From the NCBI GenBank assembly GCA_037131245.1, contig JBAXRK010000010.1, positions 3,397 through 67,396 of the forward strand: a stretch of 64,000 nt of DNA. The letters run 5' to 3'. This DNA is from Candidatus Omnitrophota bacterium. Its GTDB lineage: Bacteria; Omnitrophota; Gorgyraeia; Zapsychrales; Fredricksoniimonadaceae. A program made the translations under genes and the position numbers. The notes under the pieces were generated by a model that searched no databases, was not told the origin of the DNA, and worked only from the letters and a program-made list of their open reading frames with translations. Every line of letters starts with the position of its first letter. Position 1 is the stretch's first letter. Below, in pieces: positions 12,199 to 60,785 of the stretch.

Positions 12199-12995
12199 AT
12201 CAGGGCTTCTTTGGCCGCGGCCTTGATGATGTTTTCGTCGATAGTCCAGGTTTCGTTGACAAAGCCCGCCAGCAGGGCGTGCTCGCAGAGGATATTGATG
12301 ACCCGTGGCGTTCCTTTTGAGAAATGATGAACGGCCGCCGCCGCCGCGTCGGTAAAGGATAATTTCTTTGAGGCTCCGGCGATCTTAAGCCGGTGATGGA
12401 TATAGTGGTGAATATCTTCCTTTTCCAGAGGCTGGATATGGTAACGCACCCCGATGCGCGAGTTGAGTTGGCGCAGGGAGGGTTTTTGCAGTTTTTCCAA
12501 TAGCTCCGGCTGGCCCACCAGAATGATCTGCAACAGTTTTTCTTTTTCGGTCTCTAAATTCGACAACAGGCGGATCTGCTCGAGTTGATGCGTATTGAGG
12601 TTCTGGGCTTCATCGATGATCACAGCGACATTGTGGCCCTGCGCGGTCTGGTCGATCAAGAATTGATTGAGCGCGTTGATCAGGTCGAGCTTATTGTTCT
12701 TGGCTTTGATCCCGAGGTCTTTGGTGATCAGCTGCAGCAACTGGAGCTGCGAGAAATTGGGATTGAGGATGAAAGCCGTTTTGATGGATACATCGATCTT
12801 GTTGAGCAGGATGCGGCAGAGCGTGGTTTTTCCGGTGCCAACCTCGCCAGTCAGCGAGATGATCCCCTTGCGGGTTTTAATGCCATAAAGCAAGTGGGAA
12901 TAGGCCTCTTTATGCCGGGAGCTTTCGAAATAAAAAGCCGGGTCGGAGGTGATATTGAAGGCGTTCTCTGTGAAGCCGTAGAATTCTTTGTACAT
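12195..12995 (-). CDS. ExeA/GspA/MshM-type AAA ATPase
   Basis: 266 aa. YKEFYGFTENAFNITSDPAFYF, Walker A GEVGTGKTT and Walker B VIIDEAQNL, as in ExeA/MshM. Confidence 0.8.
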   Translation of the reverse strand: MYKEFYGFTENAFNITSDPAFYFESSRHKEAYSHLLYGIKTRKGIISLTGEVGTGKTTLCRILLNKIDVSIKTAFILNPNFSQLQLLQLITKDLGIKAKNNKLDLINALNQFLIDQTAQGHNVAVIIDEAQNLNTHQLEQIRLLSNLETEKEKLLQIILVGQPELLEKLQKPSLRQLNSRIGVRYHIQPLEKEDIHHYIHHRLKIAGASKKLSFTDAAAAAVHHFSKGTPRVINILCEHALLAGFVNETWTIDENIIKAAAKEALI

Positions 12996-13030
12996 TGTTT
13001 TCTATTATACCATGAATCCTTTCGCCCCGA

Positions 13031-13048
13031 GAGCTTGAAAGCTCTCAG
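13031..13048. promoter_or_regulatory. 18-bp palindrome GAGAGCTT-GA-AAGCTCTC in the divergent intergenic region
   Basis: Read directly. The 8-nt arms are perfect reverse complements. Confidence 0.4.
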
Positions 13049-13088: not shown

Positions 13089-13100
13089 GAAAACGTTTTC
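13089..13100. promoter_or_regulatory. Candidate operator GAAAACGTTTTC (copy 1)
   Basis: Perfect 12-bp palindrome with a central CG, located 20 nt upstream of a -35-like TTGTTT. The identical core is at 27221-27232 with identical spacing. Confidence 0.55.
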
Positions 13101-13120
13101 TTGATTCTATTGGCTGGCTC

Positions 13121-13149
13121 TTGTTTTACCGGCTTTAATAACAAATACT
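13121..13149 (+). promoter_or_regulatory. Putative sigma-70-type promoter of paralog 1 (TTGTTT-17 nt-AATACT)
   Basis: -35 at 13121-13126 and -10 at 13144-13149. The 10-mer AATACTTATA is identical to 27276-27285. An SD (GGGGAGG) precedes the ATG at 13181. Confidence 0.45.
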
Positions 13150-13180
13150 TATACAGGTGGAAGTCTGATGGGGGAGGTGT

Positions 13181-16100
13181 ATGACGTTCATTTTGCCTGA
13201 CAGGATCAAGAGGTTCATCGGTTGCGCGACGTTGGCCTCATTTATCGTTACCTCGTCGCTGGGTTATGCCCAGACGGCAGTGATCTTGCCTGCTCCCGGC
13301 AGCATGGTCGCCCTAAGCGAGCCATTTCATCCGGCCACCCTTGAGGGGATGAAAGTTTACGCCGATGCGCCCCTTCGGTTCGATTTTATTCTTGACCCGG
13401 CTGACGTGGGGGAAAATACAGGGCTTGTTTCAGAAAAACTGGTCCGGTATTTTCTGGCTTCGTTGACCGTCCCTGAAAAAGACCTCTGGGTTAATCTTTC
13501 TCCTTACGAAAAAGACCGCATTATCCCTGATGTTTTCGGCCTTACCGAGCTGGGCCGTGATCTCTTGGCCCAAGACTATATCCTTAAGCAGTTGACCGCT
13601 TCTTTGCTCTATCCTGAGGGGGAGACGGGTAAGAAGTTTTGGGCCGAGCTTTATGCCCGGGCTTATCAAAAGTATGGATCGACAGATATTCCGGTTGATG
13701 CTTTTAACAAGGTATGGATCATGCCGGCAAAAGCCGTGGTTTACGAGAAAGCGGACGCCCAGCGGCGGACGGCTTCCGTTTATGTTGTTGAGTCGCGGCT
13801 TAAGGTGTTGCTGGAAAGTGATTATTTGGCGCAGGCCAATAACAGCGGCGCCAAGGAAGCCTCCGCATCGGCCTCGATAGGACTGGCCAAAGACGTGCTG
13901 CGTTCGGTTGTCATTCCCGTACTTGAGAAAGAAGTGAATGAAGGCACTAATTTTGCGCCGTTACGTCAGGCCTATCATTCCCTGATCCTGGCGGCCTGGT
14001 ATAAAAAGAAAGTCCAGGGCAGTTTGTTAAGCCGGGCTTATGTGGACCGTAACCGGGTGGCGGGCGTTAATATTGATGATCCGCGTGAAAGTGAAAAGAT
14101 CTGGGGGCGTTATGTGCAGGCGTTCAAGAAGGGCGCGGTAAGCCTGATCCGGGAGGAGAAGGACACTTTCTCGGGAGAGGTTATTCCCCGTAAATATTTT
14201 TCGGGCGGTGTTAACGCGTCGCAGATCAGCACGGTGCTTGATACGTCCGGGCAGATGGATCTTTTTGCGGCCGCTTCCAGGAAGAAAGTGAAAGTTTCGG
14301 TCGACTTGGCACTGGCTGAATCATCGTTGGCATCCGGCGTATCAGGGCTGGGAACGGCCTGGGTTGATCAAATGCGTGCGGCGCTGTTACGGGTGCCTGT
14401 TGTCTCTGGGGGGAAACGGCGGGTGGCCCTGCTCGCTGTTAACCTGGACGCGAATAATAATCTTGTTTCGCAAGAGGTTAAAGCTGCTGCGGATAGTTTT
14501 ACTTCTTCGGTTGTTAATGACATTCGTACCCCCGACCCGCTGACGTTGTGGGGGGCGTATGCCGGAGGCCGGCTGGCAGGTATTATCGGCTATCAGACAT
14601 TGGCCGGACATCGGCAGTTGACCATCCTGAAGGAAAACGGGGAGGCGGGTGTCCGTGAGTTGTTGATGCTTCGTTTGATTAACCATGTTTATACGGCATG
14701 GGAAAGAACGAATTCCAAATCTTTGGCCTTATTCAAGGTAAATCCCGCAGATCGAGAATATTTCAAAGGCCTAGGTCTTGATGAAAGTGAAATAAGGTCA
14801 AACGATGCTGCTAATGACCAGACAGCATTGATGTCCGGGACTTTGTATGTGGCGGATTTGCCGAGAGTGGTTGGTATATTGCTTGAACGACTAAGAGGTG
14901 CCGGGTTGATCGACAGCGCCGAGTCGGTTGACAGGGCACAGGCATTTCGCATCCCGGTTGATTTTCAAGTAGCCCTCCCTAAGGTTGCCAGTCGCTCGGT
15001 CAGAGACAGGGTTTATAAGGAGTTGAGCCTTCAAGAAGGGGCGGTGGCGGATTATTTTGATACGTGGACAAAGATCATGCCTGGCGCGGTTGACAGGGAT
15101 CATTTTCTATCTGTTTACGGATTTAAGAGCAATGTTCGTAAGCGTAAAGCCAGGGTCTTGCAGAAGGGCGTTATTGAATACGCCGGCAAGGAATACATTT
15201 TTAAGCAGGGGGATGGCAAAGATCATAATATTGGGTGGCGGGAGAAACTTGGCAGCGAGCTTTTCGCCGGGTCAGTCAATGTTGTCGGGATCAAGGTTTT
15301 GCCGGATGGCGCGCATTACTTGACGCAGATCGCAACCGATGAAAACATGAGGAAGTTCAACGCCGCCGCCGGTGAGGTGGCGCCGAAGATCTTTGAAGAC
15401 CCGCTGGAAGCGACCAGCAGGATGTTCGTGGGGGCGGTTGGGATCGGCTGGATCTATGATTATCGCTTGAACAATAAAGTTTTTATGCCCCAATCGGATG
15501 GCGGATATGTGCCGGTCCTCATTGACATGGATCAGTTCCGGTTGACGGATGTTTTTCCGGCCACGGATAAAGGGTTAGGTTCGTTCATTTATCATTTTCT
15601 CAAGAACGCTTTGCTTTCACCCGCGAGATCAATGTTGGCACTTGATCAGAAAGAACGGGAGAAGTTGACCCGTTATCCAGACCTTCTGGAGCCTTCGCCG
15701 GCCGATGTTAAGGGGTTAATTGAAGAGATCAAAAAGTACCGCCTTGGGCCGGCTTACATCGCGGCGGAAGGATTGACCGCTGATGGCGTCAGGAAAGCCA
15801 TACGGGATCTTAAAAGAGAGTTGACCGACGCCCGCATTCGTTATGCCGTGGCGGTCTGCGGGTCGGGTAAGGGCCAGGCTGACCGGGAAGGCATGGTGCG
15901 GGCTTTACAGCAGCGGCGTGAAACGTTGGGGCGCACTATCGGCAAGGTTTGGGAAGTGTTAACGGGTGAAGATCCGGGCTTTGACGCGCTCGATGATCAT
16001 GCTCAGACGACGGTCGACCTCAACGTTCTTAAGGCAGAGGCACGGCGTCAGGTCCAGATGGCGTATGGCCAGCTGAGCGATCTCCTTACGTATTCGCGTC

Positions 16101-17038
16101 AGAAAGATGGCCTTAGGGATATCCTGAGTGGCTTTGTTAAGGATATTTCACGCTATGAAGATGAGGTCCAGAGCGTATCCGAAGGGCCGTTCTCTGATGA
16201 TCTGATGGAAGATATCATGATGCGGACGTTGCTGTTGCCGATCTTTAACGGGACTGATCGTTTTGAGCTGAGGGGCGAGAAAATATTCTGGTTCGTTGAC
16301 CAGGTGGTCAACGGTGAGAAGGGGTACTGTATCGCTGAGAAAAGGAATGGTACCTGGGAAGTAATGGTTCCAGAGCAGCCTGATTTCCAAAGTAAGGTGG
16401 AAGAGTATTTTTCGCGGTACAGACCGGAATCGATGCAAAAGATGATCGGCCGTTTGCAGAAGACAGTAGAAGTCCTGGAGGCGACGCACGTTGAGATCAT
16501 GGCCATGTTCAAAGAGGTGCAATCGGAGAAAGTAAAAGGGGTTTATCCTTTTGCCTGGGAGGGCCAGCTGACTGGACGTGAATCGCTGGCCGCATTGTTA
16601 AAGCGTATTTTTGATCGGCGTGTTTTTGACAGTCAAACGGCAGAGACTCAGGTATTACCCCGCCTTCTGGACCTGCGGGCGCCGAATAGTTTATTGATGA
16701 GCGGTTATCAGGGCAAGCCGGGTTTGATGATAGTACTTGCCGAGGAGAAGGATGGCCGGGAGGTGTTTGCCGATGATATGCCCTTACGATTAATGGATAA
16801 TATTGTCGCGTATTTGCGAGTTCTTATCGATGAGCTTCAGCCGGCCCTTAATAAACAAAGTGGCGGTATAGACCTTGCTTTATCACGGGTAAATTTGGAG
16901 ACCGGTACTTCGGGTGAGGGTCTGCTTTTTAACATCGATCCCGCATTGCTTGATCGGATTGAACAGGCGACGGGGCTTAAGCCGGTGATCGTTGATATTC
17001 AGCCGGCGGTTGACTTGCGTTCGTTCCTTGCCCCCTAA
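13181..17038 (+). CDS. Large exported multidomain protein, family paralog 1: shared N-cassette, unassigned (possibly GNAT-like) region, kinase-like core, helical region, shared GGIDL C-cassette
   Basis: 1285 aa. Signal-like N-terminus IGCATLASFIVTSSLGYAQT. N-cassette at 13285-14208, aligned to the other two paralogs. Kinase-like motifs: GKEYIFKQ (Lys), YDYRLNNKVF (DxxxxN loop) and LIDMDQF. C-cassette from GGIDL at 16862. Confidence 0.85.
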   Translation: MTFILPDRIKRFIGCATLASFIVTSSLGYAQTAVILPAPGSMVALSEPFHPATLEGMKVYADAPLRFDFILDPADVGENTGLVSEKLVRYFLASLTVPEKDLWVNLSPYEKDRIIPDVFGLTELGRDLLAQDYILKQLTASLLYPEGETGKKFWAELYARAYQKYGSTDIPVDAFNKVWIMPAKAVVYEKADAQRRTASVYVVESRLKVLLESDYLAQANNSGAKEASASASIGLAKDVLRSVVIPVLEKEVNEGTNFAPLRQAYHSLILAAWYKKKVQGSLLSRAYVDRNRVAGVNIDDPRESEKIWGRYVQAFKKGAVSLIREEKDTFSGEVIPRKYFSGGVNASQISTVLDTSGQMDLFAAASRKKVKVSVDLALAESSLASGVSGLGTAWVDQMRAALLRVPVVSGGKRRVALLAVNLDANNNLVSQEVKAAADSFTSSVVNDIRTPDPLTLWGAYAGGRLAGIIGYQTLAGHRQLTILKENGEAGVRELLMLRLINHVYTAWERTNSKSLALFKVNPADREYFKGLGLDESEIRSNDAANDQTALMSGTLYVADLPRVVGILLERLRGAGLIDSAESVDRAQAFRIPVDFQVALPKVASRSVRDRVYKELSLQEGAVADYFDTWTKIMPGAVDRDHFLSVYGFKSNVRKRKARVLQKGVIEYAGKEYIFKQGDGKDHNIGWREKLGSELFAGSVNVVGIKVLPDGAHYLTQIATDENMRKFNAAAGEVAPKIFEDPLEATSRMFVGAVGIGWIYDYRLNNKVFMPQSDGGYVPVLIDMDQFRLTDVFPATDKGLGSFIYHFLKNALLSPARSMLALDQKEREKLTRYPDLLEPSPADVKGLIEEIKKYRLGPAYIAAEGLTADGVRKAIRDLKRELTDARIRYAVAVCGSGKGQADREGMVRALQQRRETLGRTIGKVWEVLTGEDPGFDALDDHAQTTVDLNVLKAEARRQVQMAYGQLSDLLTYSRQKDGLRDILSGFVKDISRYEDEVQSVSEGPFSDDLMEDIMMRTLLLPIFNGTDRFELRGEKIFWFVDQVVNGEKGYCIAEKRNGTWEVMVPEQPDFQSKVEEYFSRYRPESMQKMIGRLQKTVEVLEATHVEIMAMFKEVQSEKVKGVYPFAWEGQLTGRESLAALLKRIFDRRVFDSQTAETQVLPRLLDLRAPNSLLMSGYQGKPGLMIVLAEEKDGREVFADDMPLRLMDNIVAYLRVLIDELQPALNKQSGGIDLALSRVNLETGTSGEGLLFNIDPALLDRIEQATGLKPVIVDIQPAVDLRSFLAP

Positions 17039-17041
17039 AGT

Positions 17042-17470
17042 GTGAAATTTACTAAAAACGTCTTTGGCATCGACTGGCTATGGTATACTACGCCTATTAA
17101 AGGGATACTTATGGCGGCTCAATCCGGCTTTGATAACAGGAAATTCCAGCGGGCAGTGTTCAGGCACCCGGTGAAGTATAAGACCTCCAGTGTTGAGATC
17201 TATGCCGGCCATCTGGCGCAGGATATCAGCATGGGCGGGATGCGTATTAACTCTAATGAGTTTGTTCCTATCGGGACGCGCGTGATCCTTCAGGTGCAGT
17301 TGAAAGTGCAGGAGAAGTTGCTGGATCTGGAAGCCAAGGTCGTATGGGTCAAACAATCGCCTTTTTCGGAAGGGTACCAGCTCGGCCTCGAGTTTGTCGG
17401 CGGGTCTGCTTTTGAGAGGCTGAAGATCGCCGAGGTTGTCGTTAAGCCTAAACAGGGGGTGCCGCATTGA
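17042..17470 (+). CDS. PilZ-domain protein (c-di-GMP receptor type); the real start is probably the internal ATG near 17111
   Basis: RKFQR (RxxxR) and DISMGG (DxSxxG) motifs. Begins 4 nt after the stop of paralog 1. Confidence 0.75.
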   Translation: MKFTKNVFGIDWLWYTTPIKGILMAAQSGFDNRKFQRAVFRHPVKYKTSSVEIYAGHLAQDISMGGMRINSNEFVPIGTRVILQVQLKVQEKLLDLEAKVVWVKQSPFSEGYQLGLEFVGGSAFERLKIAEVVVKPKQGVPH

Positions 17471-17841
17471 GTCATAAAGATCCGGTTGAAAAGCGTCGTT
17501 ATCCTCGTATTGAGCACAGCGTTCCGGTCAAGATCGGCGCTGTTGATGCCGATCTGGTCACGGCGACCCGCAATATCAGCCGTTCCGGTGTTTATTGCCG
17601 GGTTGATAAGTATCTGGAGCCAATGACCAAGCTGAAGATCACCCTGATGCTTCCGGTTAAGAAAGAGGGGAAGGTCGCGACCAGGAAGATCGTCTGTTCC
17701 GGCGTGATCGTTCGTGTTGAGAATATACCTTTTGAAGACGCTTTTAACATCGCGATCTTTTTCAATGAGATCAAACCCTCTGACAGTCGCGCGTTGGCTG
17801 ATCACGTGCAGGGAGTCCTCGCCGAGAAGGTCGTTGTTTAA
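17467..17841 (+). CDS. PilZ-domain protein
   Basis: RRYPR and NISRSG motifs. TTG start overlaps the previous stop by 4 nt. Confidence 0.7.
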   Translation: MSHKDPVEKRRYPRIEHSVPVKIGAVDADLVTATRNISRSGVYCRVDKYLEPMTKLKITLMLPVKKEGKVATRKIVCSGVIVRVENIPFEDAFNIAIFFNEIKPSDSRALADHVQGVLAEKVVV

Positions 17842-24956: not shown

Positions 24957-25247
24957 ATGAAGCTTCAACCACTCGCAGACAGGATCATTATTCAGCCTCT
25001 TTCTGCCGAAGAAGTCACCAAGGGCGGTATCGTCCTTCCTGACACGGCGAAAGAAAAGCCCCAGGAAGGCAAAGTTGTTGCCGCTGGAAAAGGCAAAGTG
25101 CTCGATAACGGGCAGGTTCAGGCCCTTGAGGTCAAGGTGGGCGATATTGTGCTTTACGGCAAATATAGCGGCACCGAGATCAAGGACAAGGATGGCACCG
25201 CGCTTTTGATCATCCGTGAAGAAGAAGTTCTGGCTATCGTTAAATAA
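24957..25247 (+). CDS. groES: Co-chaperonin GroES
   Basis: 96 aa. [14 protein letters not shown]...[20 protein letters not shown]. Confidence 0.95.
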
Positions 25248-25309: not shown

Positions 25310-25348
25310 AAAAAAATTTTAACATAGAAAATTTTTTTGGAGGTTTTT

Positions 25349-27013
25349 ATGGCTGCAAAGATCTTACAGTATGATGACGAAGCCCGTCGTTCCGTGCTTC
25401 GCGGTGTTGAACAGCTCGCGAGAGCGGTCAAAGTGACGCTCGGTCCCAAGGGGCGCAATGTCATTATCGACAAGAAGTTCGGTTCCCCCACGGTCACCAA
25501 GGACGGCGTTTCCGTTGCCAAGGAGATCGAGCTGGAGAATGCGTTCGAGAACATCGGCGCGTCGATGGTCAAGGAAGTGGCCGAGAAGACGTCTGACAAT
25601 GCCGGTGACGGTACCACGACCGCGACGGTGCTGGCTGAAGCTATTTATCGTGAAGGCCTCAAGAATGTGACGGCCGGCGCGAACCCGATGGCGCTTAAGC
25701 GCGGTATCGACAAGGCTGTCACAGCCGTTGTTGAGAAGATCGCCAAGCTGTCGAAGAAGGTTGATATGAAAGAGAACCGTGAAGTGGAGCAGGTGGCCAC
25801 CATCGCGGCGAATTCAGACAGCGTTATCGGCAAGAAGATCGCCGAAGCGTTTGAAAAAGTTGGTAAAGATGGTGTTATCACGGTTGAAGAGTCCAAGACC
25901 ATCAACACGGAGCTGAAGTTCGTTGAGGGGATGCAGTTCGACCAGGGTTACCTGTCGCCTTATTTCTCCACGGACATGGAGAAGATGGAATGTGAGCTCG
26001 ATAATCCTTTTATTCTCATTTATGAGAAGAAGGTTTCGAACATCAAGGATATGCTGCCTGTTCTCGAGAAGGTGGCCAAGGCTGGCGCCCCGCTTCTGAT
26101 CATTGCGGAAGATGTTGAAGGCGAAGCACTTGCGACGCTGGTAGTGAACAATCTGCGCAAGACCCTTTCTTGCTCAGCTGTTAAGGCTCCGGGTTATGGC
26201 GATCGTCGCAAGGCGATGCTTGAAGACATTGCTGCCCTCACGGGTGGCATGGCCATCACGGAAGACCGCGGGATGAAGCTGGAAAATATTCAGCTTTCTG
26301 ACCTGGGTCGTGCTAAAAAGGTCAAGATCGATAAGGACAATACGACCATCGTTGAAGGCGCCGGTAAGACCGCCGACATCAAGGGCCGTATCGCTCAGAT
26401 CAAGGCTCAGATCGACAAGACTGATTCTTCCTACGATAAAGAGAAGCTCCAGGAGCGCCTGGCGAAGCTGTCCGGTGGTGTTGCCATCATCAATGTTGGC
26501 GCGGCGACCGAGAGCGAAATGAAGGAAAAGAAGGCTCGTGTTGAGGACGCGCTTCACGCGACCCGCGCGGCGATCGAAGAAGGTATCGTTCCCGGCGGTG
26601 GTGTGGCTCTTCTTCGTTGTTTGGAAGATGTGGCGGCGCTGCAGCTTACTGGCGACGAGAAGACCGGCGCGGATATTATCCTGCGTGCGATCGAATCTCC
26701 CGTTCGTCAGTTATGCTTGAATGCCGGCCTTGAGGGTTCGGTCATTGTTGACCGCCTCAAGAAGGAAAAGAAGAACATTGGTTATGATATCAATAAGGAC
26801 GCTTATGTCGATATGCTCGAGAGCGGCGTTATTGATCCGGCCAAGGTTACTCGTACGGCGCTGCAGAACGCGGCGTCCATTGCGGGCCTCCTTCTCACCA
26901 CAGAGTGCGTGATCACCGATGCTCCTGAAAAGGACAAGGGTGGCATGCCTCCGATGGGTGGTATGGGCGGTGGTATGGGTGGTATGGGTGGTGGCATGGG
27001 TGGTATGATGTAA
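25349..27013 (+). CDS. groEL: Chaperonin GroEL
   Basis: [13 protein letters not shown]...[12 protein letters not shown]..., with a C-terminal GGM repeat tail. The start is taken at the ATG preceded by GGAGG, rather than the track start at 25337. Confidence 0.97.
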
Positions 27014-27039
27014 TAACTTTCGCCTTCGGCGAAAGTTAT
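27013..27039 (+). terminator. Hairpin directly after the groEL stop
   Basis: ATAACTTTCGC-CTTCG-GCGAAAGTTAT, a perfect 11-bp stem. A weak T-rich tail follows. Confidence 0.5.
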
Positions 27040-27058
27040 TTATCTAATAGTAACTCAG

Positions 27059-27096
27059 CCCCGGGACTTCGAAAAGAGGTCCCGGGGTTTCTTTTT
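27059..27096 (+). terminator. Rho-independent terminator of groESL
   Basis: CCCCGGGAC-11 nt loop-GTCCCGGGG, followed by TTTCTTTTT. Confidence 0.8.
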
Positions 27097-27216
27097 GTCA
27101 TTCCATTGGCGCCGGGATACCATCATCTGCTCAGATAGCACGTCCAGCTCTTTCTAGTAGGGATTGAAAGCTGGCCGTGAACTCGCATCTGATGGTATTC
27201 CGACGCCTGGAATGAC
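27097..27216. repeat. About 120-nt long imperfect inverted repeat / extended hairpin
   Basis: Arm 27097-27130 (GTCATTCCATTGGCGCCGGGATACCATCATCTGC) pairs with 27185-27216 at 28 Watson-Crick positions plus one G-U. An inner stem is formed by ACGTCCAGCT (27140-27149) and AGCTGGCCGT (27169-27178). Confidence 0.6.
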
Positions 27217-27218
27217 CT

Positions 27219-27234
27219 GAGAAAACGTTTTCTC
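27219..27234. promoter_or_regulatory. Candidate operator GAGAAAACGTTTTCTC (copy 2; 16-bp perfect palindrome)
   Basis: The core GAAAACGTTTTC at 27221-27232 is identical to 13089-13100, and also lies exactly 20 nt upstream of a -35-like hexamer. Confidence 0.55.
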
Positions 27235-27252
27235 GAAACAAGCTTCCAGCCA

Positions 27253-27281
27253 TTGATATACATTACTTTATAGTCAATACT
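27253..27281 (+). promoter_or_regulatory. Putative promoter of the paralog 2/3 operon (TTGATA-17 nt-AATACT)
   Basis: -35 at 27253-27258 and -10 at 27276-27281. AATACTTATA is identical to the paralog 1 locus. An SD (GGGAG) lies 8 nt before the ATG at 27307. Confidence 0.45.
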
Positions 27282-27306
27282 TATATACGGCGAGGGAGTC
27301 GTGTAT

Positions 27307-30300
27307 ATGAAAAGAGCGGTTTTTCCCAATTGGCGTAAGGCCATTTCTTTATTTGTCCTGGTTGCTTTCTTGACGACCGGGTTGAATATCCCTTTGGCCC
27401 GTTCTCAGTCCTTATCCCTTCCGCCCACCGGACAGATGCTCTCGCTCAGCGCTCCCTTTGAGCCTGTTTTGTTAAGGGGGATGAAAGTTTATCCGCAAGA
27501 CCCCTTCCGTTTCGATTTTATCCTCGATAAAGGCGGTAATGAAGCCGGCTCACTGAAGCTGATCAAATATTTTCTGGCTTCGCTCACCACCTCTGAAAAA
27601 GACCTTTGGGTTAACCTTTCTCCTTACGAAAAAGACCGGATCATTCCTGATGCCCTTGCCAGGACGGAACTGGGGCGTGACCTTTTGGCTGAAGATTACG
27701 TACTTAAACAGCTTTCTTCCTCACTGATGCATCCTGACGGCGCAGCCGGCCGGGTGTTGTGGCGGAAGATCTACGCTGCCCTTAATGCGTCGCTGGGGAC
27801 CACGGATGTTCCGCTGGATATGTTCAACAAGGTCTGGATCATGCCGGACACGGCTAAGGTTTTTGAGAAAGCTGATCGGGCCTTCGTGATCAAGGCGCGC
27901 CTGAAGGTTATGTTGGACGCGGATCATTTGGCTTTATCCAGTCAGGGTGACGCATCGGCGTCAGCTGCGGCGTCAGCTGCTGCTCCGGAGCAGGCCTTGA
28001 CACAAAAGGCCTTGCGAGAGGTTATCATTCCCATTCTGGAGAAAGAGGTTAATGAGGGCGCGAACTTCGCTCAGCTGCGGCAGATCTATCAGGCGCTGAT
28101 CCTTTCGATCTGGTTTAAGAAACGCATGAAAGCGTCGATCCTAGGCCGGAATTATATCGACCGTGGCCATGTTTCCGGCATTGCTCTGCCGGGAGAAGAA
28201 GGCGCGCAGGATAAGCAACAGATCTATGAGCGTTATCTGGAAGCGTTTAAGAAGGGCGTTTATAACCTGATCCGCGAGGAAGCGGACCCAGCGAACGGGG
28301 ATGTTATCCCGAGGAAGTATTTCTCCGGCGGGTTTGGGGTTGGTGATTTTGCCGCAAAGGTTGAATGGGCCCGGAGCGTGGATCCATCGGAGATATCGGA
28401 CCGGCCGTTAGAGTCATTGACCGTTGATGTTGCCGGTGGTCGTGTTGTGAACGTAGCGGACCAGATCGAGGCACGTCGCGAATTTCTGGTTGCTGCCCGC
28501 TCTGTGAGGGGAACGGAGAACACGGTTGAGGATTTGGCTGTTTTGGAGCAGATCATTTTACGCCGAAGCGAAGCTCCGGTTGTCCTTGAGATAGGCTTTG
28601 GGAATGCTGCCTGGGCTTTAGCGATGGCTGATAAAGAGCAAAAAGAGGCGCAGGCTGCCGGGAGGACGGCGCGACAGTTCATTCTCATCGATGCGGATAA
28701 GTCCCCTCATAGTGAAGCTGGTGAGTCTTCTTCCATGGTCCCTTTTTCTGAAGTGAGGGAAAATATCCGGAGCCGGGGTCTTGCGAACATTGTTGCTTTG
28801 CGGGCGGATATGGACTTCCTGGATCTTCTTCCTGATGGGGCGGCTGATGATATTGTGCTGATCAATCCTTATGGTCCGATGCTCGATGAGATCTTTTTAC
28901 CTGGCGGCAGAATGCCGCAATTTGCCAATGTTCTTAAACCGGGCGGGCAGATCATTGTACGTCCCAATGGCATGACCAGGCCCTTTCTTCCGGGGGATAA
29001 TGCGTATTTCGGAAAAGCCCAACTCAAGCTTCTTAAAGAAGTGAAGAAGGGATCACTATTGGATTTCCTGTCGACAACTCCGGTGGGCGCGAATTATTTC
29101 ATGGCGCTTAAAAGGCGGGATTTCGCCGAGAAAACAGCCCCGTCAACGGCTAAGCTTAGGATGATGGCGTCCTATTTGAAGATATACCGGGAAGCGATAC
29201 AGCGAGGCTTGCTGGATCCGAAGAAAGTTGAACACGCGCTTAACTTGGGAGCGGGGAGTGGTTGGGATGCGCGGATGTTTCTTAAGGCCTTTCCGTCAGC
29301 CCGATTTATCGGGGTTGAGTCGTATCCGGATGCTCTGGAGGCGTTTAATGCCACCCCGGTCGATCGCGACAGGTTCACCATTGTTCCGGCTAATGCTCTC
29401 GATCTTCAGGACTCTTTCGATTTTCAATCTGCCGCGGATAAGGTTTCATTCGACCTGGTGGTCCTGCAGAATCCGGAAATTTATACAACGGCTGAGGACT
29501 ATAAAAAGGCGCTGGGTTATATCGCGAGCCGGATGAAAGATGATGGAAAATTTGTTATTGTGATGGATAAGCACCGTCGGGAGAGCCTTGAAGATGGAAA
29601 CCCTCAGTTAATGGAGGCACTCTCTGGGGTTGTTGCTAAACCGACATTTTCCAGTAGGCGTGTTTTCCCTTATGAGTATTTACCATCCACAGATCCGCGC
29701 CGGCAGTCTTCAGGTTTTATGACCATACCGGTCAGAGTTTACGTGATCACGGGCGCGGAACTTAAGGCAGCTGTTGCGGATGCGTCCATGTCTCCGGAGA
29801 AAGCGCTGGTTGGGAAGCAGAAGGTTGGCCGGCGGGACGCTGCGCAGAATTATGTTTTGAAAGAGGTCAGGAAGATCAATCCAGAGGCAGGGATAGCTGT
29901 ATTCAGGCTAGCCGATATGCTTGATGACAACGGCGCAGTTCGGGGTGCATTCAGGTTCGCTCTTCATTCCGCGCTGGCCAGAGGTGACGGGATACAAATC
30001 GACCTTGCGGGCATGGAAGGGGAAACTTTTTACTATAGCAAGTTGCAGGCGCGGTTTGCATTATTTGCCCGTCAACTGGCGGAGCATTACGGGCTCAATT
30101 CGAAAGAGATCCCTTCAGGTGAAACATCAAATACCGGACGTATCGGGTATGTCCTCACGGAGTTGCTCAAGAATGCTTTTACGCATGGTAATGGGCTAAA
30201 GGCTTCGCTGCCGATCCTTTTTTATTTCAATCCGTGGGACAGGCAATTCTTTGTGATGGACCAGCATGTTCCGCAAGAGGAGCGGGACCCTGTTGAGTGG

Positions 30301-31884
30301 GAGAAAGCGAACTTCTCTATTTTCGGTTTCGGGAAAGGATTGAAGCGCTCTCGTGATCCGACAGAGTTCGGCGCGATCATTCATATGGCGGAGGTTGAGG
30401 GCGGGTATATCGTGTCCGCGATCTTTCCCCGAAAGCTATTTAAGCGATCTGTTGTTGATCACGCGATGAAACCTTCAACGATCCTGAATGTGGGTTTGAT
30501 CGCGGCGGTACTCTATTTTATGCCGGAGATTAAGACGCAGCTGGTGAAGTGGCAAAAGCAGATCGGGATGACGCCGCGTGATCTGGTCGTCAATACGGTT
30601 AACGCGGTCGCTACATCTTATGAGAATGCGGCTTCGTTCGATATCATTACCCTGTCGCAGGTGCCTGCCGATCCGAAAAGCAGGGAAGACGGTTTGCGAA
30701 CCCTTGCGAATGATCTGGAGAGATTGAAAGCGGTCAATGGTAACCCTCAGATCCAGGATGAGCTTCGGGCTTTGATCAAGAAATATGATCCCTCCATGAT
30801 AACGGAGCCGGATATCGCTGGTCCTCAGGCTTTGCTTGTGGCGGCGGGGAATGATCCGTATTGGAAAGCCTTGTTCAAGAAATACCGTCCAGTCTATAAG
30901 TATGAAGTTCAAAGCGCGGATGCCCAGAGCGTGTCGCTGGTCAAGATGGGGCGGAAGACTTTTTACTTGAAAGCCATGACGGATAAGGGCGATATGCAAA
31001 GAGAGCTTTTTGCGTATAGGGTCGCTCGGTCCATGGGGGTTAATGTTCCGCATGTGGTCGCACTGTCGGAGGATGACCTTTTGGAGATCAAGGATCTAAG
31101 CTGGAGTGACGCGCACCATTATCCTTTTGCATTGCTGATCCAGGCCGCTGAAGAAATGGAGCCGGCGGACCTTAGTTCCGGTAGCGGCAGCGGCATCGAA
31201 GAATTGGTCGCGTTCGCCCATTTGACGCGCCATAACGACTGGAGTCTGGGGCATAATTTCAAGGCGGTCTTTATCGGCGGGAAATATCGGGAGGTTGTTT
31301 ACGATCTTCCGATCGATCTTAGAAATGAGGGACTTACACGCGACGTGCTCAAGAGGGCCAGATTGTACAAAGCCGTCAATGGAAGTATCGCTTATTTATG
31401 GCGGTCGTATCTTGACAAGATCAACAATGTTAAATTGCTGGCTGTTATCGATAGGGTTTCGAAGGCCGGTTTCTTCCAGCAGGCCCTTGAGGGGATCCCG
31501 GGAGAGGTGGTCGGCGCGCAGTATCTTCCTGCCCGTCAGCAACAGTTGAAGATGGATATTATCCGCGGGATCGAAGATTGCCAGGATAAACTCAGGTATT
31601 TTCCGTCACAGATAGCTTCGGCCAGAGACCTTAAGGCGGCTTTGCGGGCGGCGCCGCTTACTGATGTCGGTGGTATCGATCTTGATCCCACGAAGGTTGA
31701 TCTGCAGATAACTGGCGAAGTGCCAGGTCTGCCGGTGTATCAAAACGGAGATCCTGTCAACGTGAACATTGATTACGAGAACATTCGGCCAGTGATCATC
31801 GGTGTTCAGCCTTTGATCAGCGCGGCCATGTTCCTGGGGTTAAGTGAAAGCCCCGTAGCAGGAGGGGAGGCCCCTCATGTTTAA
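27307..31884 (+). CDS. Large exported multidomain protein, family paralog 2: N-cassette, TrmB-like methyltransferase, second class I methyltransferase, GHKL ATPase/kinase-like domain, internal hydrophobic helix, kinase-like domain, GGIDL C-cassette
   Basis: About 1525 aa. Signal-like ISLFVLVAFLTTGLNIPLARS. N-cassette at 27421-28332. VVLEIGFGNA (~28579). LNLGAGSG (~29241). ELLKNAFTHGNG plus GFGKGL (30160-30342). STILNVGLIAAVLYFMPEI (30475-30531). KTFYLKA, LTRHNDWSLGHNF and VYDLPIDL (30955-31320). GGIDL at 31669. Confidence 0.85.
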   Translation: MKRAVFPNWRKAISLFVLVAFLTTGLNIPLARSQSLSLPPTGQMLSLSAPFEPVLLRGMKVYPQDPFRFDFILDKGGNEAGSLKLIKYFLASLTTSEKDLWVNLSPYEKDRIIPDALARTELGRDLLAEDYVLKQLSSSLMHPDGAAGRVLWRKIYAALNASLGTTDVPLDMFNKVWIMPDTAKVFEKADRAFVIKARLKVMLDADHLALSSQGDASASAAASAAAPEQALTQKALREVIIPILEKEVNEGANFAQLRQIYQALILSIWFKKRMKASILGRNYIDRGHVSGIALPGEEGAQDKQQIYERYLEAFKKGVYNLIREEADPANGDVIPRKYFSGGFGVGDFAAKVEWARSVDPSEISDRPLESLTVDVAGGRVVNVADQIEARREFLVAARSVRGTENTVEDLAVLEQIILRRSEAPVVLEIGFGNAAWALAMADKEQKEAQAAGRTARQFILIDADKSPHSEAGESSSMVPFSEVRENIRSRGLANIVALRADMDFLDLLPDGAADDIVLINPYGPMLDEIFLPGGRMPQFANVLKPGGQIIVRPNGMTRPFLPGDNAYFGKAQLKLLKEVKKGSLLDFLSTTPVGANYFMALKRRDFAEKTAPSTAKLRMMASYLKIYREAIQRGLLDPKKVEHALNLGAGSGWDARMFLKAFPSARFIGVESYPDALEAFNATPVDRDRFTIVPANALDLQDSFDFQSAADKVSFDLVVLQNPEIYTTAEDYKKALGYIASRMKDDGKFVIVMDKHRRESLEDGNPQLMEALSGVVAKPTFSSRRVFPYEYLPSTDPRRQSSGFMTIPVRVYVITGAELKAAVADASMSPEKALVGKQKVGRRDAAQNYVLKEVRKINPEAGIAVFRLADMLDDNGAVRGAFRFALHSALARGDGIQIDLAGMEGETFYYSKLQARFALFARQLAEHYGLNSKEIPSGETSNTGRIGYVLTELLKNAFTHGNGLKASLPILFYFNPWDRQFFVMDQHVPQEERDPVEWEKANFSIFGFGKGLKRSRDPTEFGAIIHMAEVEGGYIVSAIFPRKLFKRSVVDHAMKPSTILNVGLIAAVLYFMPEIKTQLVKWQKQIGMTPRDLVVNTVNAVATSYENAASFDIITLSQVPADPKSREDGLRTLANDLERLKAVNGNPQIQDELRALIKKYDPSMITEPDIAGPQALLVAAGNDPYWKALFKKYRPVYKYEVQSADAQSVSLVKMGRKTFYLKAMTDKGDMQRELFAYRVARSMGVNVPHVVALSEDDLLEIKDLSWSDAHHYPFALLIQAAEEMEPADLSSGSGSGIEELVAFAHLTRHNDWSLGHNFKAVFIGGKYREVVYDLPIDLRNEGLTRDVLKRARLYKAVNGSIAYLWRSYLDKINNVKLLAVIDRVSKAGFFQQALEGIPGEVVGAQYLPARQQQLKMDIIRGIEDCQDKLRYFPSQIASARDLKAALRAAPLTDVGGIDLDPTKVDLQITGEVPGLPVYQNGDPVNVNIDYENIRPVIIGVQPLISAAMFLGLSESPVAGGEAPHV

Positions 31885-34800
31885 AAAGTTTATTTCAGCC
31901 ATTCTTTCGTTTCTTTTATTGCTGCCGCAGACCTTGCCGGCAGCGGCGGCGGAGCTTTCCTGGCTTCCGGCGCCCGGCGTGATGGTGGCGCCCGGAGCCG
32001 CGCTGCGCCCGCCGGTATTGCGGGGCATCAGGGTGAATATGAAAGACCCGTTTCGTTTTCAGTTCCTTGTTGAGGAAGGCCAGCAGGCGTTCACTGATGA
32101 AGAGGCCGATCGTAATCTAAAGTACTTTTTTACGGCTTTGACCGTTCCGGAGAAAGAGGTTTGGGTGAACCTCTCGCCATTGGAAAGCGGCCGTATTGTA
32201 CCCGATGTGCTGGCTGATACCGCGATGGGGCGCGATCTTTTGGGCCAGGATTATCTCTTGAAACAGTTATCGTCGTCGATGTTGTTCCCTGAGCAGGGGA
32301 TTGGAAAAGAATTCTGGCAGCGCGTGTACGCGCGCGCGGCTAAAGAGTTCGGGACCACGGATATTCCGCTCGATGTGGTCAGCCGCGTCTGGATCACACC
32401 TGGTGATATCGATGTGCAGGAGCGTGGCGGCACCGCGGTGATCGCCCGCGCGACGCTCCAGGTGATGACGGAAGATGATTACTTGTCGCGTGAGGGCAAG
32501 GGGAGCGTGGTGGCACCAGAGAAACAGTTGATGACCCGCGTGTTCCGCGAAGTGGTCGTCCCTGAACTGGAACGTGAAGTGAACTCCTCGGAGCATTTTA
32601 CCGCGGTGCGGCAGGTTTACAATGCGCTGATCCTGGCGGCCTGGTATAAGCGCCGTTTCTCTGATGGCACGCTCTCAAAGGAATATGTGGACCGGGGAAA
32701 AACAGCGGGGATCTCGACGGGCGATAAGACCATGCGTGCCGCGATCTATGAGCGGTATTTGGAGGCATACAAAAAGGGCGTGTTCAATTTTATCCGCGAA
32801 GAGGCCGATGTTTCCGGTGATGTTTTGCCGCGTAAATATTTTTCAGGCGGAGTGGACATCGGTGAACAGATGGCTAGTCATTTGCGTATTGGCCCCATGG
32901 GTGCGCTGCCAGTGTCAGAGGGCCCGCTGCGTGTGCTTGATGTCGGGGCGAATTCAGCGCAGAAACCGGACGCGTCTGAGAAACCGGAAAGTTATATCAC
33001 CAAGGATCCCAGGGAATCCGGCAACAAAGGGTTGAACCTTTTTAAGATGGAAGCGATCTTGCCGGGTTATGTTCCGCCTTTTGAAATGTTGTCTGCGCGT
33101 TTATACGCTGCGCATAAAAGCAGCCGAAGCAAAAAGTCATTCTTGGCGAAGGTCGTTAAAGAGGTAGCATTGCTCGAGCATGGTGGGACATTTGCTATCC
33201 GTCCGGCAGGAATGATCAATATGCCTGGCGTTATCCCGACGGTTAAAGGGATCAGCAGCGTTGAAGATATTGTGGGGGCGATCATCAAGATCTATGAAGC
33301 CTGGGAATCTCCTGAGGCGGTTGGTTATTTGAAGACATCTGCTGCCCGTCAGGATATTGGCGGCCGCAAGGTTACAGGTCCGGCGGTGGTCATTCAGCAG
33401 GAGGTGTTCGGGGATGGTGACGCGCAAAAGAGTGCCAGTGGCGTTTTCATGTCGCGCGATCAGGATACCGGAGATTTTGTTTTATCAGGTTCTCTTGGGC
33501 TTAACACGAAACCTGAGGATATCCGTAATGGTTCTAACCGTGTCCTTCATCCGCTTAACGCGGGGGTTGACCAGGACTTCCCTTTGCTGGGCGGGGATGT
33601 CCATACGCAATTGGTGAAGATCTCGCACATTCTTGAGAAACACTATCAGTATCCGGTCGAGGTAGAGTTCATTATTGACCGTGGCAGGATCTATATCGTT
33701 CAGGTCAACCGGCAGGATATCCCGCAAAGCCTTGAAATGGCGGTTTTCACCAAAATGGCTGATGAGCAGGTTATCCCCCGTCCCAGAGTCGCTTTACCGA
33801 AGAGGACTCTCGTGCGGCAGATCGGCCGGATCAAGCCGGAGGCTGTTTTCAGTGAAGTGGCCAAGTCTAATGCCGGCCTCGCTCCCGGAGCGGTCGATGG
33901 CCGCTTGGCGTTCAGTGTTAAGGAAGCAAAAAAGATGCGTGTTCAAGGTAACGGGCCGGTGATCATTGTTTCAGATGACCCTAATCAAGAAGGGTTGTTG
34001 CAACTTTTAGTTAGTGGTGACATCGATGGGCTTATGACCACTTATGGTGATTATCATATGCACTTGGCCCGGATCGCCCGGGAGGGCTTGATCCCGGGGA
34101 TCTCTTTGGTTGGTCAAGACGTTCAAGTGAGCGGAAAGGGTGATGGCCGGGCGCTAACGATCGGCGGAAGACGGTTTACTTCCGGAGATCGTTTGGCGAT
34201 CGCGATCGAGAATCATATTGAATTACAGCCTGATGGCCAGAAGGAGATGGTGCATACCGGTGTGGTTGTCGAACCAAATCCGGAGCATGCAGACCCTGTG
34301 GTGGAAACAAGGGATGTACCGATGGCGGACTTGTATTTCGACGTGGCTAAGCTTCAGGATGAGGTCCGTCAGAAGTACGGGAAAAGGGATCCCGTGGTGC
34401 TCGCGGCGGCGCATGCGCTTTTGAAGGCATATCTGCATAAGAATGTTGTAAAGGGGATCGAGGCTAATAAGTTGGAGGCGGCGACCAATGCCATCCACTT
34501 GATCATTGGCGATCAGACCGGTGATACTTCTCCTGAGCGCAGCCGTGAGGAAGAGTTTACGCCGATCATCAATGGTTTTGGGTCGAAATATCCCTTTCCC
34601 GATATCCGGACGGTTGACGACCTTGAAAAAGTGTTGGAACAAATGACATATTTTGTTAATCGGTACAAGGCGCTTAAACCGGCGGCGATACGGTATGTAA
34701 ATTATGAGAACGGAAAAAGAACAGTAAGCTCCTTTGGCCAGCAGCTGCCGATCGAGTTCTCTATCGATTTTGAGAGAGAGGACGTCAATTGGGAGTATGA

Positions 34801-35923
34801 GAACCCGGCCTTATGGGCGTTTGTACGCCAGGCTAGGCCGCGGATCGATTATCAGGACGAGACTGGGATGACGCGGTTTCTGGAAGGGCCATGGGTTGAA
34901 GGTGTTTCTTTTATGGTGGATGTGGGTGACCCATCCGTTGAGAAAAGGAAGATCAGGGTTTCCGGTCACGCTGATGTGTTAGGCGGCCATGCGGGCAGGG
35001 TGTTTGCTATTTCGCTGTTGAGCGGTGGCAGGGCTGTTAGGACTTTTAACGAAAGCTATGTTGTTGAGGCCAGGGATTTTGACGGCGTTGTAAGGCATCG
35101 GGCCGAGCAGGCAGTTCATTCCTATCGCCCGGGACGCAGTGGGGATATGACCTCCACCAAGATGAAGGAGGTTTTGTCCAGTGCCCTGGCGCCGTTCATG
35201 TCAGCGGGCTTATCGGTCGTTCTTAATGGCCGGGCGAATTTTATTTCTGATACAGGTGATGATGGCCGGTCTTCACAGCCCGGGGCGCATTATCGCGAGG
35301 GAGGGTTCTTCTGGCGTTGGTTCGATCAGTCGCTGGGAAGTTACGAATCGGATAAAGCAGATAAAAAGTTAAAAGATCCTGATCTTGGATGGAAGCGTGA
35401 ATCCGCATTTTTTACGCGTTTGCTCAGGGATCTTTTTCCTGATCAAAAGAACGGGGTCTTCTATCATGGTGGCCTTCTTGAACAGCAGGGTCTGGAGTTG
35501 CACAATCAGAACGCTATGGTTGGAGTAAGCAATGTTTCCTGGGTCGTGCTCTCGGAAGGTATCGTTTCAAGTTTGGCCGATGAGGTCGCGCGCCTGGGAA
35601 AGAAGTATGACCTCAGAGACGTGATCCAGGATGACGACCGCGGTAACAAGCGCGTTGATCTCGAAGGGGCTTTGATCCTGATGTATCTGGAGCGCGGCGG
35701 AACAGTCGATGGTTTGGTTAAGTTGGCCGGGGACGCCTCCCAGCAGGTTGGTGGTATCGATCTTAACATCTCTGATCGTGTGATCGGCAATGCTGAGCAA
35801 AGAACGCTTCTTCAAGGCAGGGCAGCGGATATTGGAGCGCGGGACATTGCTGGCCTTGTCCCGGTTATTTTAAGCCAGTCAGCGGTGCCTACCATGGCTG
35901 ATTTTGTTGATTTTTCACGGTAG
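31877..35923 (+). CDS. Large exported multidomain protein, family paralog 3: N-cassette, PPDK/PEP-synthase-type ATP-grasp domain, swivel phosphohistidine domain, ~550-aa unassigned domain, GGIDL C-cassette
   Basis: 1348 aa. Signal-like ILSFLLLLPQTLPAAAA. N-cassette at 31963-32851. GNKGLNLFKME, FAIRPAGMINMPGVIPTV, VVIQQEVFGDG and VEVEFIIDRGRIYIVQVNRQ (33020-33715). GLAPGAVDGRLAF...TTYGDYHMHLARIAREGLIPGISLVG (33880-34113). GGIDL at 35750. 8-nt overlap with paralog 2. Confidence 0.85.
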   Translation: MFKKFISAILSFLLLLPQTLPAAAAELSWLPAPGVMVAPGAALRPPVLRGIRVNMKDPFRFQFLVEEGQQAFTDEEADRNLKYFFTALTVPEKEVWVNLSPLESGRIVPDVLADTAMGRDLLGQDYLLKQLSSSMLFPEQGIGKEFWQRVYARAAKEFGTTDIPLDVVSRVWITPGDIDVQERGGTAVIARATLQVMTEDDYLSREGKGSVVAPEKQLMTRVFREVVVPELEREVNSSEHFTAVRQVYNALILAAWYKRRFSDGTLSKEYVDRGKTAGISTGDKTMRAAIYERYLEAYKKGVFNFIREEADVSGDVLPRKYFSGGVDIGEQMASHLRIGPMGALPVSEGPLRVLDVGANSAQKPDASEKPESYITKDPRESGNKGLNLFKMEAILPGYVPPFEMLSARLYAAHKSSRSKKSFLAKVVKEVALLEHGGTFAIRPAGMINMPGVIPTVKGISSVEDIVGAIIKIYEAWESPEAVGYLKTSAARQDIGGRKVTGPAVVIQQEVFGDGDAQKSASGVFMSRDQDTGDFVLSGSLGLNTKPEDIRNGSNRVLHPLNAGVDQDFPLLGGDVHTQLVKISHILEKHYQYPVEVEFIIDRGRIYIVQVNRQDIPQSLEMAVFTKMADEQVIPRPRVALPKRTLVRQIGRIKPEAVFSEVAKSNAGLAPGAVDGRLAFSVKEAKKMRVQGNGPVIIVSDDPNQEGLLQLLVSGDIDGLMTTYGDYHMHLARIAREGLIPGISLVGQDVQVSGKGDGRALTIGGRRFTSGDRLAIAIENHIELQPDGQKEMVHTGVVVEPNPEHADPVVETRDVPMADLYFDVAKLQDEVRQKYGKRDPVVLAAAHALLKAYLHKNVVKGIEANKLEAATNAIHLIIGDQTGDTSPERSREEEFTPIINGFGSKYPFPDIRTVDDLEKVLEQMTYFVNRYKALKPAAIRYVNYENGKRTVSSFGQQLPIEFSIDFEREDVNWEYENPALWAFVRQARPRIDYQDETGMTRFLEGPWVEGVSFMVDVGDPSVEKRKIRVSGHADVLGGHAGRVFAISLLSGGRAVRTFNESYVVEARDFDGVVRHRAEQAVHSYRPGRSGDMTSTKMKEVLSSALAPFMSAGLSVVLNGRANFISDTGDDGRSSQPGAHYREGGFFWRWFDQSLGSYESDKADKKLKDPDLGWKRESAFFTRLLRDLFPDQKNGVFYHGGLLEQQGLELHNQNAMVGVSNVSWVVLSEGIVSSLADEVARLGKKYDLRDVIQDDDRGNKRVDLEGALILMYLERGGTVDGLVKLAGDASQQVGGIDLNISDRVIGNAEQRTLLQGRAADIGARDIAGLVPVILSQSAVPTMADFVDFSR

Positions 35924-52834: not shown

Positions 52835-52892
52835 CGTTAATTACCGGTATAAATTAATTAATATAACATTTCCGACGACAATCGACCCCTTG

Positions 52893-60698: not shown

Positions 60699-60785
60699 CT
60701 GTTCCTGGCTGTTTATTGTTTTTTTCTTGTCACTGAAGACGGAAATAGATATACTGGTTTTCATTTCTCGCTGAAAGGCCTTTGA

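Follow-up and report, generated by a model that had tools for sequence, protein, structure and literature searches.

Two genes for related secreted proteins, in the stretch of Omnitrophota DNA analysed here (the window, 64 kb in all), are each preceded by a perfect palindrome, a –35 box and a –10 box. A first-pass annotation had described the arrangement in front of the second gene as a duplicated operator-promoter module, and had taken the duplication as strong evidence of co-regulation. The locus raises the question of which of these elements sets the two genes apart, how they came to share it, and what a protein bound to the palindrome might do there. The features of the second site are these:

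27057–27089, plus strand: intrinsic terminator of the groES-groEL operon (scanner call)
27219–27234, no strand assigned: palindrome copy 2, GAGAAAACGTTTTCTC, 16 bp and perfect, with a 12-bp core at 27221–27232
27253–27258, plus strand: –35 box TTGATA, 20 nt past the palindrome core
27276–27281, plus strand: –10 box AATACT, 17 nt past TTGATA; with the conserved TATA it makes up AATACTTATA at 27276–27285
about 27288 (27287–27289), plus strand: transcription start, predicted from the –10 box
27294–27298, plus strand: Shine–Dalgarno sequence GGGAG, 8 nt ahead of the ATG at 27307

From the palindrome and TTGATA through the 17-nt spacer and the –10 box to the Shine–Dalgarno sequence and the ATG, every element lies exactly where the first-pass annotation had placed it. 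A consensus promoter scanner also calls TTGATA-17-AATACT at 27253–27281; a GTG at 27301 is an alternative to the ATG as start codon. Upstream of the site are groES (24957–25247), groEL (25337–27013) and then terminator hairpins, and the intrinsic terminator at 27057–27089 shields the module from upstream transcription. Two successive hairpins are found 3′ of groEL (27013–27039 and 27057–27089), of which only the second has a T-run and a terminator call.

The first site lies between a divergent gene for an AAA_22 ATPase (12195–12995, minus strand) and the gene that begins with the ATG at 13181:

13089–13100, no strand assigned: palindrome copy 1, GAAAACGTTTTC, 12 bp and perfect
13121–13153, plus strand: promoter, with TTGTTT at 13121–13126, a 17-nt spacer, and AATACT at 13144–13149 followed by TATA (AATACTTATA at 13144–13153)
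about 13156, plus strand: predicted transcription start

These coordinates confirm that the distances from core to –35 box and from –35 box to –10 box are the same at the two sites, as had been claimed for the copy at 13089–13149. The exact 12-mer GAAAACGTTTTC occurs at just these two places in the 64-kb window, and allowing one mismatch adds none. The pattern GAAAACGTTTTC-N20-TTG-N20-AATACTTATA is matched twice in the window, as against no match in 100 dinucleotide-preserving shuffles, and a weight-matrix scan of the window scores the two sites at 23.0 and 21.7 bits, the next best sequence reaching 13.8. The upstream regions of 13181 and 27307 align at the functional boxes only; their flanks have diverged fully. 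The 9-mer TTGAAAGCT, found at 13035 and 27164, was considered as a further part of the module and rejected: its distance to the palindrome differs by 3 nt between the two sites, the window contains about as many copies of it as chance predicts, and the sites in other Omnitrophota genomes are without it. At site 1 it forms the centre of an inverted repeat, GAGAGCT-TGAA-AGCTCTC (13029–13046); the site-2 copy occupies 27164–27172.

The genes behind the two sites are as follows:

13181–17038, plus strand: first gene of the proposed regulated pair, encoding a family paralog of 1285 aa
17042–17470 and 17467–17841, plus strand: two PilZ-domain genes directly 3′ of the first gene
27307–31884, plus strand: second gene of the pair, encoding 1525 aa with a signal peptide, the family N-terminal domain and a methyltransferase domain
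31877–35923, plus strand: third family paralog, its N-terminal domain 42% identical, with a PPDK_N fragment

The proteins encoded at 13181 and 27307 share a signal peptide and an N-terminal region of about 370 residues that is 47% identical (E = 2e-99). No Pfam model matches this domain. It defines a very large family, found only in Omnitrophota (812 matches among 8000 candidates scored), whose C-terminal parts vary and include kinase, methyltransferase, HEAT, HAD and PPDK_N domains. All named relatives of the downstream protein are proteins from Omnitrophota MAGs, the best about 52% identical. The C-termini of the two proteins (16780–17038 and 31600–31884) have in common a short region with a GGIDL motif, 31% identical over 84 aa, which may be a sorting or anchoring signal. 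The gene at 31877–35923 overlaps the stop codon of 27307–31884 and has no promoter of its own; we infer that these two genes share one transcript, and that the PilZ genes at 17042–17841 form one operon with the gene at 13181. It has been reported that most large genes of Omnitrophota are followed by pilZ genes (bioRxiv 10.1101/2023.11.21.568195). Elsewhere in the window, 7207–8280 encodes a GAF + HD_5 (HD-GYP-type) protein that is likely to be a c-di-GMP phosphodiesterase. This HD-GYP-type protein and three PilZ genes together give the 64 kb a dense content of c-di-GMP signalling.

The two promoter boxes prove to be widespread. For comparison, 80 loci encoding the family domain were drawn from 44 Omnitrophota species genomes (492 kb), 77 of the loci being usable for the promoter count. 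In about 50 of the 77 the sequence [A/T]TACT[T/C] lies within 135 nt of the start, usually with cTTGtTT 17 nt upstream, and TTGnnn and (A)ATACTTATA boxes precede about 50 family genes that have no palindrome at all. Such boxes also stand before an unrelated PilZ gene in the window (TTGTCA-N17-TATACT, 60727–60755), and the –10-like octamer is enriched about 5-fold upstream of ORFs outside the family. Judged by its distribution in these sequences, cTTGtTT-N17-tATACT is the generic promoter of Omnitrophota, predicted to be of the sigma-70 type. Since the boxes are generic, the TTGnnn and AATACTTATA boxes that the two sites have in common are no evidence of a special module, although the first-pass annotation had counted them as part of one. 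A palindrome was also sought before the third PilZ gene (60786–61190), where there is just a clean generic promoter; not all PilZ genes, therefore, belong to a regulon marked by the palindrome.

In the loci L021, L027, L028, L052 and L064 the ATG stands exactly 11 nt past ATACTT, and the mRNAs of some family paralogs may thus be leaderless. These relatives would fix the –10 hexamer as nATACT and the transcription start 7 nt after it, and the dyad-centre positions given below assume such a start, 7 nt past TATACT. Other promoters of the family appear to be of a second flavour. Upstream of the family gene in L005, L018, L027, L034, L037, L042, L056 and L075, (A)nTGGCA(A/G) takes the place of TTGnnn, about 17–19 nt upstream of TATACTT, a spacing unfit for sigma-54; it may reflect another sigma factor or the site of another regulator. 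Within the window, AATACTTATA (51515–51524) and TATACTTATA (52010–52019) are also found inside the end of a 3382-aa ORF (42686–52834), shortly before an overlapping TPR ORF of 2025 aa (52710–58787). Neither a palindrome nor a clear –35 box lies near these two positions, which may belong to a promoter within the ORF or to the region where the second giant gene really starts.

The palindrome is the more selective element, borne by about one in five of the sampled family paralogs. In 12 of the 44 other Omnitrophota genomes sampled it stands, as AGAAARCGTTTTCT, in front of family paralogs and 19–20 nt ahead of their –35 box. Nine loci have it when one mismatch at most is allowed, and in eight of these it is located 50–120 nt upstream of the family gene start. 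When a weight matrix with a threshold of 17 bits was run over the 492 kb of the 80 loci, all matches but one fell 50–135 nt upstream of a family start; the exception is a doubtful site in L051, 9 nt from the start codon. The matrix yields 13 loci and two weaker ones, from 12 genomes, three genomes having two copies each. Nineteen independent sites yield nAGAAArCGTTTTCTn as their consensus, with A, C, G, T and C positions that never vary, the central CG (19/19) among them.

The placement of the site is conserved as well. Where a –10 box is recognisable in the window and genome sites, L013 apart, ATACTT follows the core after 44 nt in nine sites and after 43 nt in six. In the module sequences listed from the genomes, the TTG of the –35 box starts 20 nt past the core; TTGnnn-N17-nATACT boxes of good quality are common among the copies, the TTG being absent from about 6 of 15. 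Measured from the inferred start, the dyad is centred at –61.5 at both window sites and at –60.5 or –61.5 in 15 of the 17 window and genome sites, so that spacing varies by only 1 nt among the regular sites. The outliers are L078, without a recognisable promoter, and L013, the single one with a displaced centre, at about –79.5. Assignment of L013 to a helical phase series was tried and rejected: the expected position is –82.5, and –79.5 is out of phase with –61.5.

In a neighbour-joining tree of the family, the palindrome-bearing genes are scattered. The gene at 13181 groups with the bearers L003, L038, L030 and L044, and the nearest neighbours of 27307 are without the site. Together with the alignment of the boxes only and the 47% identity of the proteins, this scatter points to selection and not to recent duplication: the palindrome appears to have been maintained or regained by selection in an old regulon, with no recent copying of a block. 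The picture of a complete module duplicated within the window, as first proposed, is not borne out. Co-regulation of the paralogs, which had been deduced from it, is well supported by the conservation across genomes; the duplication in the window is not the strongest evidence for it.

Which other genes carry the arrangement was asked of metagenome contigs, scanned for GAAARCGTTTTC-N43-45-ATACTT with the downstream gene left unconstrained. There were at least 122 matches. Among the approximately 118 unique matches listed, a TTG occurs at gap index 19 or 20 in 47, as against about 2–3 at each other position, and 45 of the matches listed are module-like. Downstream of the module-like matches listed are family genes in 12 cases, a protein of about 110 aa starting MRDLLFKNLTS in at least 12, PilZ proteins (L101, L105, L135 and L180), one MORN-repeat protein, and large secreted proteins with FN3, Ig or pro-kumamolisin domains. 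Exact-sequence look-ups trace the small protein and the PilZ proteins to Candidatus Omnitrophota. One contig, L138, has three matches of palindrome plus ATACTT within 15 kb (5170–5231, 8199–8259 and 11903–11964), two of them with TTG at the –35 position. The neighbouring ORFs, of 470–560 aa, are without Pfam domains, and only the one from 11879 has its start at most 300 nt from a match; next to them are a PyrR binding site and pyrimidine genes.

Some of the modules lead directly into riboswitches. Rfam c-di-GMP-I aptamers scoring at or above the gathering threshold (37–49 bits) lie on the same strand, directly 3′ of the module, in four loci:

L122, 268–368, strand of the module: c-di-GMP-I aptamer
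L167, 43–131, strand of the module: c-di-GMP-I aptamer
L190, 208–325, strand of the module: c-di-GMP-I aptamer
L193, 1440–1540, strand of the module: c-di-GMP-I aptamer

Matches below the gathering score are found directly downstream of the module, again on its strand, in L103, L129, L124 and L174. What follows the riboswitches is either a gene for a large secreted protein or that for the small protein with a PilZ gene after it. In the window, where the leaders are only about 20–25 nt long, the Rfam search found no riboswitch. A further match below threshold lies at 7805–7905 of L205. The leaders of the small-protein genes are 220–400 nt long, and many score under the Rfam thresholds; they may represent a divergent c-di-GMP-I variant.

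The small protein (MRDLLFKNLTSxDKKRK...), seen in L131, L174, L189, L193 and L201–L206 and encoded at 8001–8330 in L201, also permits a test that is independent of the motif. Three small-protein loci fetched by protein identity all have the complete arrangement of palindrome and both promoter boxes. Their palindromes are AAGTAAACGCTTTCTT, AAGAAAACGCTTTCAA and TTGAAAACGCTTTCTT; cTTGAAA follows 19 nt past the palindrome and TATACTTT comes after a 43- or 44-nt gap, with the centre at –60.5 or –61.5. The gene keeps its synteny after lepA-lepB-pgsA-plsY, the module always being upstream, and the protein, which is highly conserved and specific to Omnitrophota, has 573 relatives at 60–77% identity, all named ones from Omnitrophota, with no Pfam domain. 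Since no gene is commoner behind the module, the small protein was considered as a regulator acting on its own gene; the idea was set aside, its AlphaFold model being all-beta (pLDDT 74) and showing no sign of a DNA-binding fold. Structure comparison of the model gives only weak START/Bet v1-like matches (E 0.015, TM 0.23), and there is no PDB sequence match.

A chance repeat, or a neutral remnant of the duplication of a gene with its upstream region, would suit the fact that the downstream genes are paralogs. Such an origin is refuted by the retention of the site in many other genomes and can be put aside as almost certainly wrong; the empty shuffles and the survival of intact boxes in fully diverged flanks, before proteins only 47% identical, speak against it as well. 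Nor does the sequence behave as an RNA hairpin in a longer transcript, whether a terminator, an attenuator or a processing site. A perfect palindrome can fold, and the local structure amounts to –11.7 kcal/mol (z = –1.9), but the stem is A-U rich with no T-run after it, and it is flanked by a good terminator on its 5′ side and by the predicted start on its 3′ side. Substitutions across the 19 sites are non-compensatory: 71% of cells are paired compared with 72.5% in column shuffles, covariation is below the shuffle mean, and the common variants GAAAGCGTTTTC, GAAAACGCTTTC and GAAACCGTTTTC alter one arm only. A hairpin is thus highly improbable. Non-compensatory variation and a place upstream of the predicted start mark the palindrome as a DNA site, and very probably it is a functional regulatory site to which a protein binds.

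An invariant central CG is a hallmark of the operators of the LacI/GalR family. Because AGAAARCGTTTTCT, with its central CG, resembles the sites that such proteins recognise, a LacI-family protein is the leading candidate for the regulator, although the identification is tentative and has somewhat less than an even chance of being right. The symmetric PurR operator crystallised in PDB 1PNR (acGaAAACGTTTtCgt; PMC4655474) has the 12-mer GAAAACGTTTTC letter for letter at its core; so does the minimal site of the LacI-family protein LipR (PMC10989752), and the 12-mer also lies within a mapped CcpA cre site (AAAGAAAACGTTTTCT; PMC8359418). Among the metagenome matches that are not module-like, Atribacteria contigs have GAAAACGTTTTC 25–40 nt before LacI-family genes, and a Butyrivibrio contig has the near-identical palindrome GGAAAACGCTTTCC before such a gene:

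L164, about 4040–4060: palindrome preceding a LacI-family gene
L115, about 7290–7310: palindrome preceding a LacI-family gene
L107: palindrome preceding a LacI-family gene

These Atribacteria and Butyrivibrio sites have nothing to do with the Omnitrophota module, being operators of the textbook autoregulated type. LacI genes were looked for near the modules and discarded as neighbours, the tblastn matches falling only on these non-module contigs; with PurR and LacI sequences as queries, tblastn gave no LacI-family match in the roughly 0.6 Mb of Omnitrophota loci covered. When essentially all ORFs of the window were scanned with Pfam, no helix-turn-helix regulator turned up.

The position of the site bears on how a bound protein would act. 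It lies wholly upstream of the –35 box, at a rigid distance, and this fits an activator better than a classical operator. The best explanation is probably that of a dimeric transcription-factor site at a fixed distance upstream of an ordinary promoter, where the factor would most likely assist RNA polymerase; that the protein is an activator is somewhat favoured. Cre boxes upstream of the –35 box, as at ackA, pta and ilvB, support activation by CcpA that depends on the face of the helix (PMC3463425). The first-pass annotation had spoken of an operator, with its implication of repression, and the geometry at about –61.5, which is that of a class I activator or an activating cre, tells against the word. 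It is nevertheless conceivable, though unlikely, that the site is a true operator, a repressor at –61.5 blocking alpha-subunit contacts or another activator, or forming loops or oligomers across the promoter. LacI-family proteins mostly repress metabolic genes rather than activating genes for surface proteins; the core promoters are near consensus and look strong, so that dependence on an activator is not required; and the L013 outlier is out of helical phase. An A-rich tract, moreover, is often present just past the palindrome (about –53 to –50), and a bound protein could mask an UP-like element there. The exception among the upstream CcpA sites, that of the lev promoter, represses by blocking LevR (PMC3463425). 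Against these points, the site is clear of the –35 box, the –10 box and the start in more than 60 examples, a rigid 19–20 nt to the –35 box across distant genomes is needless for simple repression, and the weight-matrix scan finds no second site for looping near either window copy.

The same fixed distance to the –35 box might instead point to a promoter element read by RNA polymerase itself with no separate regulator, either UP-like, for the C-terminal domains of alpha, or an extension read by a special sigma factor. The site is rich in A/T, and its place is immediately upstream of where UP elements usually lie. UP elements, however, do not typically have dyad symmetry or an invariant central CG, and the palindrome is absent from most promoters with the same –35/–10 consensus, including that at 60727–60755. 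Among the metagenome matches listed, no rRNA, tRNA or ribosomal-protein genes lie downstream of it. An element of this kind is improbable, and activation by a bound regulator is preferred.

The proposed activation can be put as follows. A dimeric transcription factor, perhaps LacI-like, would bind the palindrome and, centred at about –61.5, would most likely help RNA polymerase in the style of a class I activator, as CcpA does at upstream cre boxes. The secreted family proteins at 13181 and 27307 would be switched on jointly, along with the co-transcribed gene at 31877 and the pair of PilZ genes that follow 13181. Elsewhere in the phylum the site would control more paralogs, large surface proteins, PilZ proteins and the protein of about 110 aa, which is often behind a c-di-GMP-I riboswitch. 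The palindrome may thus mark a phylum-wide regulon tied to c-di-GMP signalling.

Omnitrophota are uncultivated and partly predatory nanobacteria. Full-text literature searches, genome-scale papers included, returned no description of promoters, palindromes or riboswitches in the phylum. The element is of an ordinary kind, a palindromic transcription-factor site with a sigma-70-type promoter, and represents a new example from a phylum so far unstudied; it is of interest for its organism and its regulon and not as a mechanism. The most far-reaching reading, in which a LacI-like palindrome at –61.5 is the activator site of a phylum-wide regulon of large secreted proteins (from a multi-paralog family with Archaeovorin-like domain content), surface giants, PilZ receptors and a riboswitch-led small beta-sheet protein, is a speculative possibility. 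If it is correct, control through the palindrome and control through c-di-GMP, by riboswitch and PilZ, would be layered on the same machinery for attachment or attack, and a LacI-family protein would have been recruited from repression of metabolism to activation of a lifestyle. The direct tie between the regulon and c-di-GMP riboswitches was unexpected. For practical purposes, cTTGtTT-N17-tATACT with a start 7 nt past the –10 box offers a working promoter model for the phylum. The palindrome offers a searchable marker of a co-regulated set of large secreted proteins and PilZ genes that are thought to serve attachment to host or prey. Scans of complete genomes with the motif could reveal which genes act together in the Omnitrophota lifestyle, and the palindrome could serve as bait for finding its regulator.

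Among known systems, the palindrome most resembles the operators of the LacI/GalR family (the PurR box, the CcpA cre and the LipR site), with a dyad of 14–16 bp, an invariant central CG and AA/TT arms. The targets differ: secreted and surface proteins, PilZ genes and riboswitch-led genes in Omnitrophota, sugar and purine metabolism in the other systems. The location differs too, since most LacI-type operators overlap the promoter, whereas this site ends 19–20 nt upstream of the –35 box in all copies of the module, at about –61.5, a position that matches only the minority class of activating LacI-family sites. The lac P1 promoter is a class I promoter with its CRP site at –61.5, and the Omnitrophota arrangement is like those of class I CRP and FNR promoters in placing a dyad site at about –61.5, by the inferred start, upstream of a sigma-70-type promoter. 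Unlike CRP and FNR boxes, it has a different motif, most conserved at its centre, and an outlier at –79.5 that falls off the class I series of –61.5, –71.5, –82.5 and –92.5. The activating CcpA cre boxes of Bacillus subtilis, at ackA, pta and ilvB, likewise put a LacI-type palindrome upstream of the –35 box (PMC3463425). To act, CcpA requires HPr-Ser-P, and at ackA also CodY and additional upstream sequence; the spacing of the Omnitrophota sites is far more uniform across genes and genomes than that of the activating cre boxes. On the side of the genes, the nearest parallel is the work of West-Roberts et al. (bioRxiv 10.1101/2023.11.21.568195), which covers the proteins and their neighbours and says nothing of promoters, palindromes or riboswitches. 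The proteins of the window, at 1.3–1.5 kaa, are unlike the giants described there, but the phylum is the same and the genes are arranged alike, small PilZ genes coming after the gene for a large secreted protein of several domains. The domain content, with methyltransferase, PPDK_N, HEAT and HAD, is similar too.
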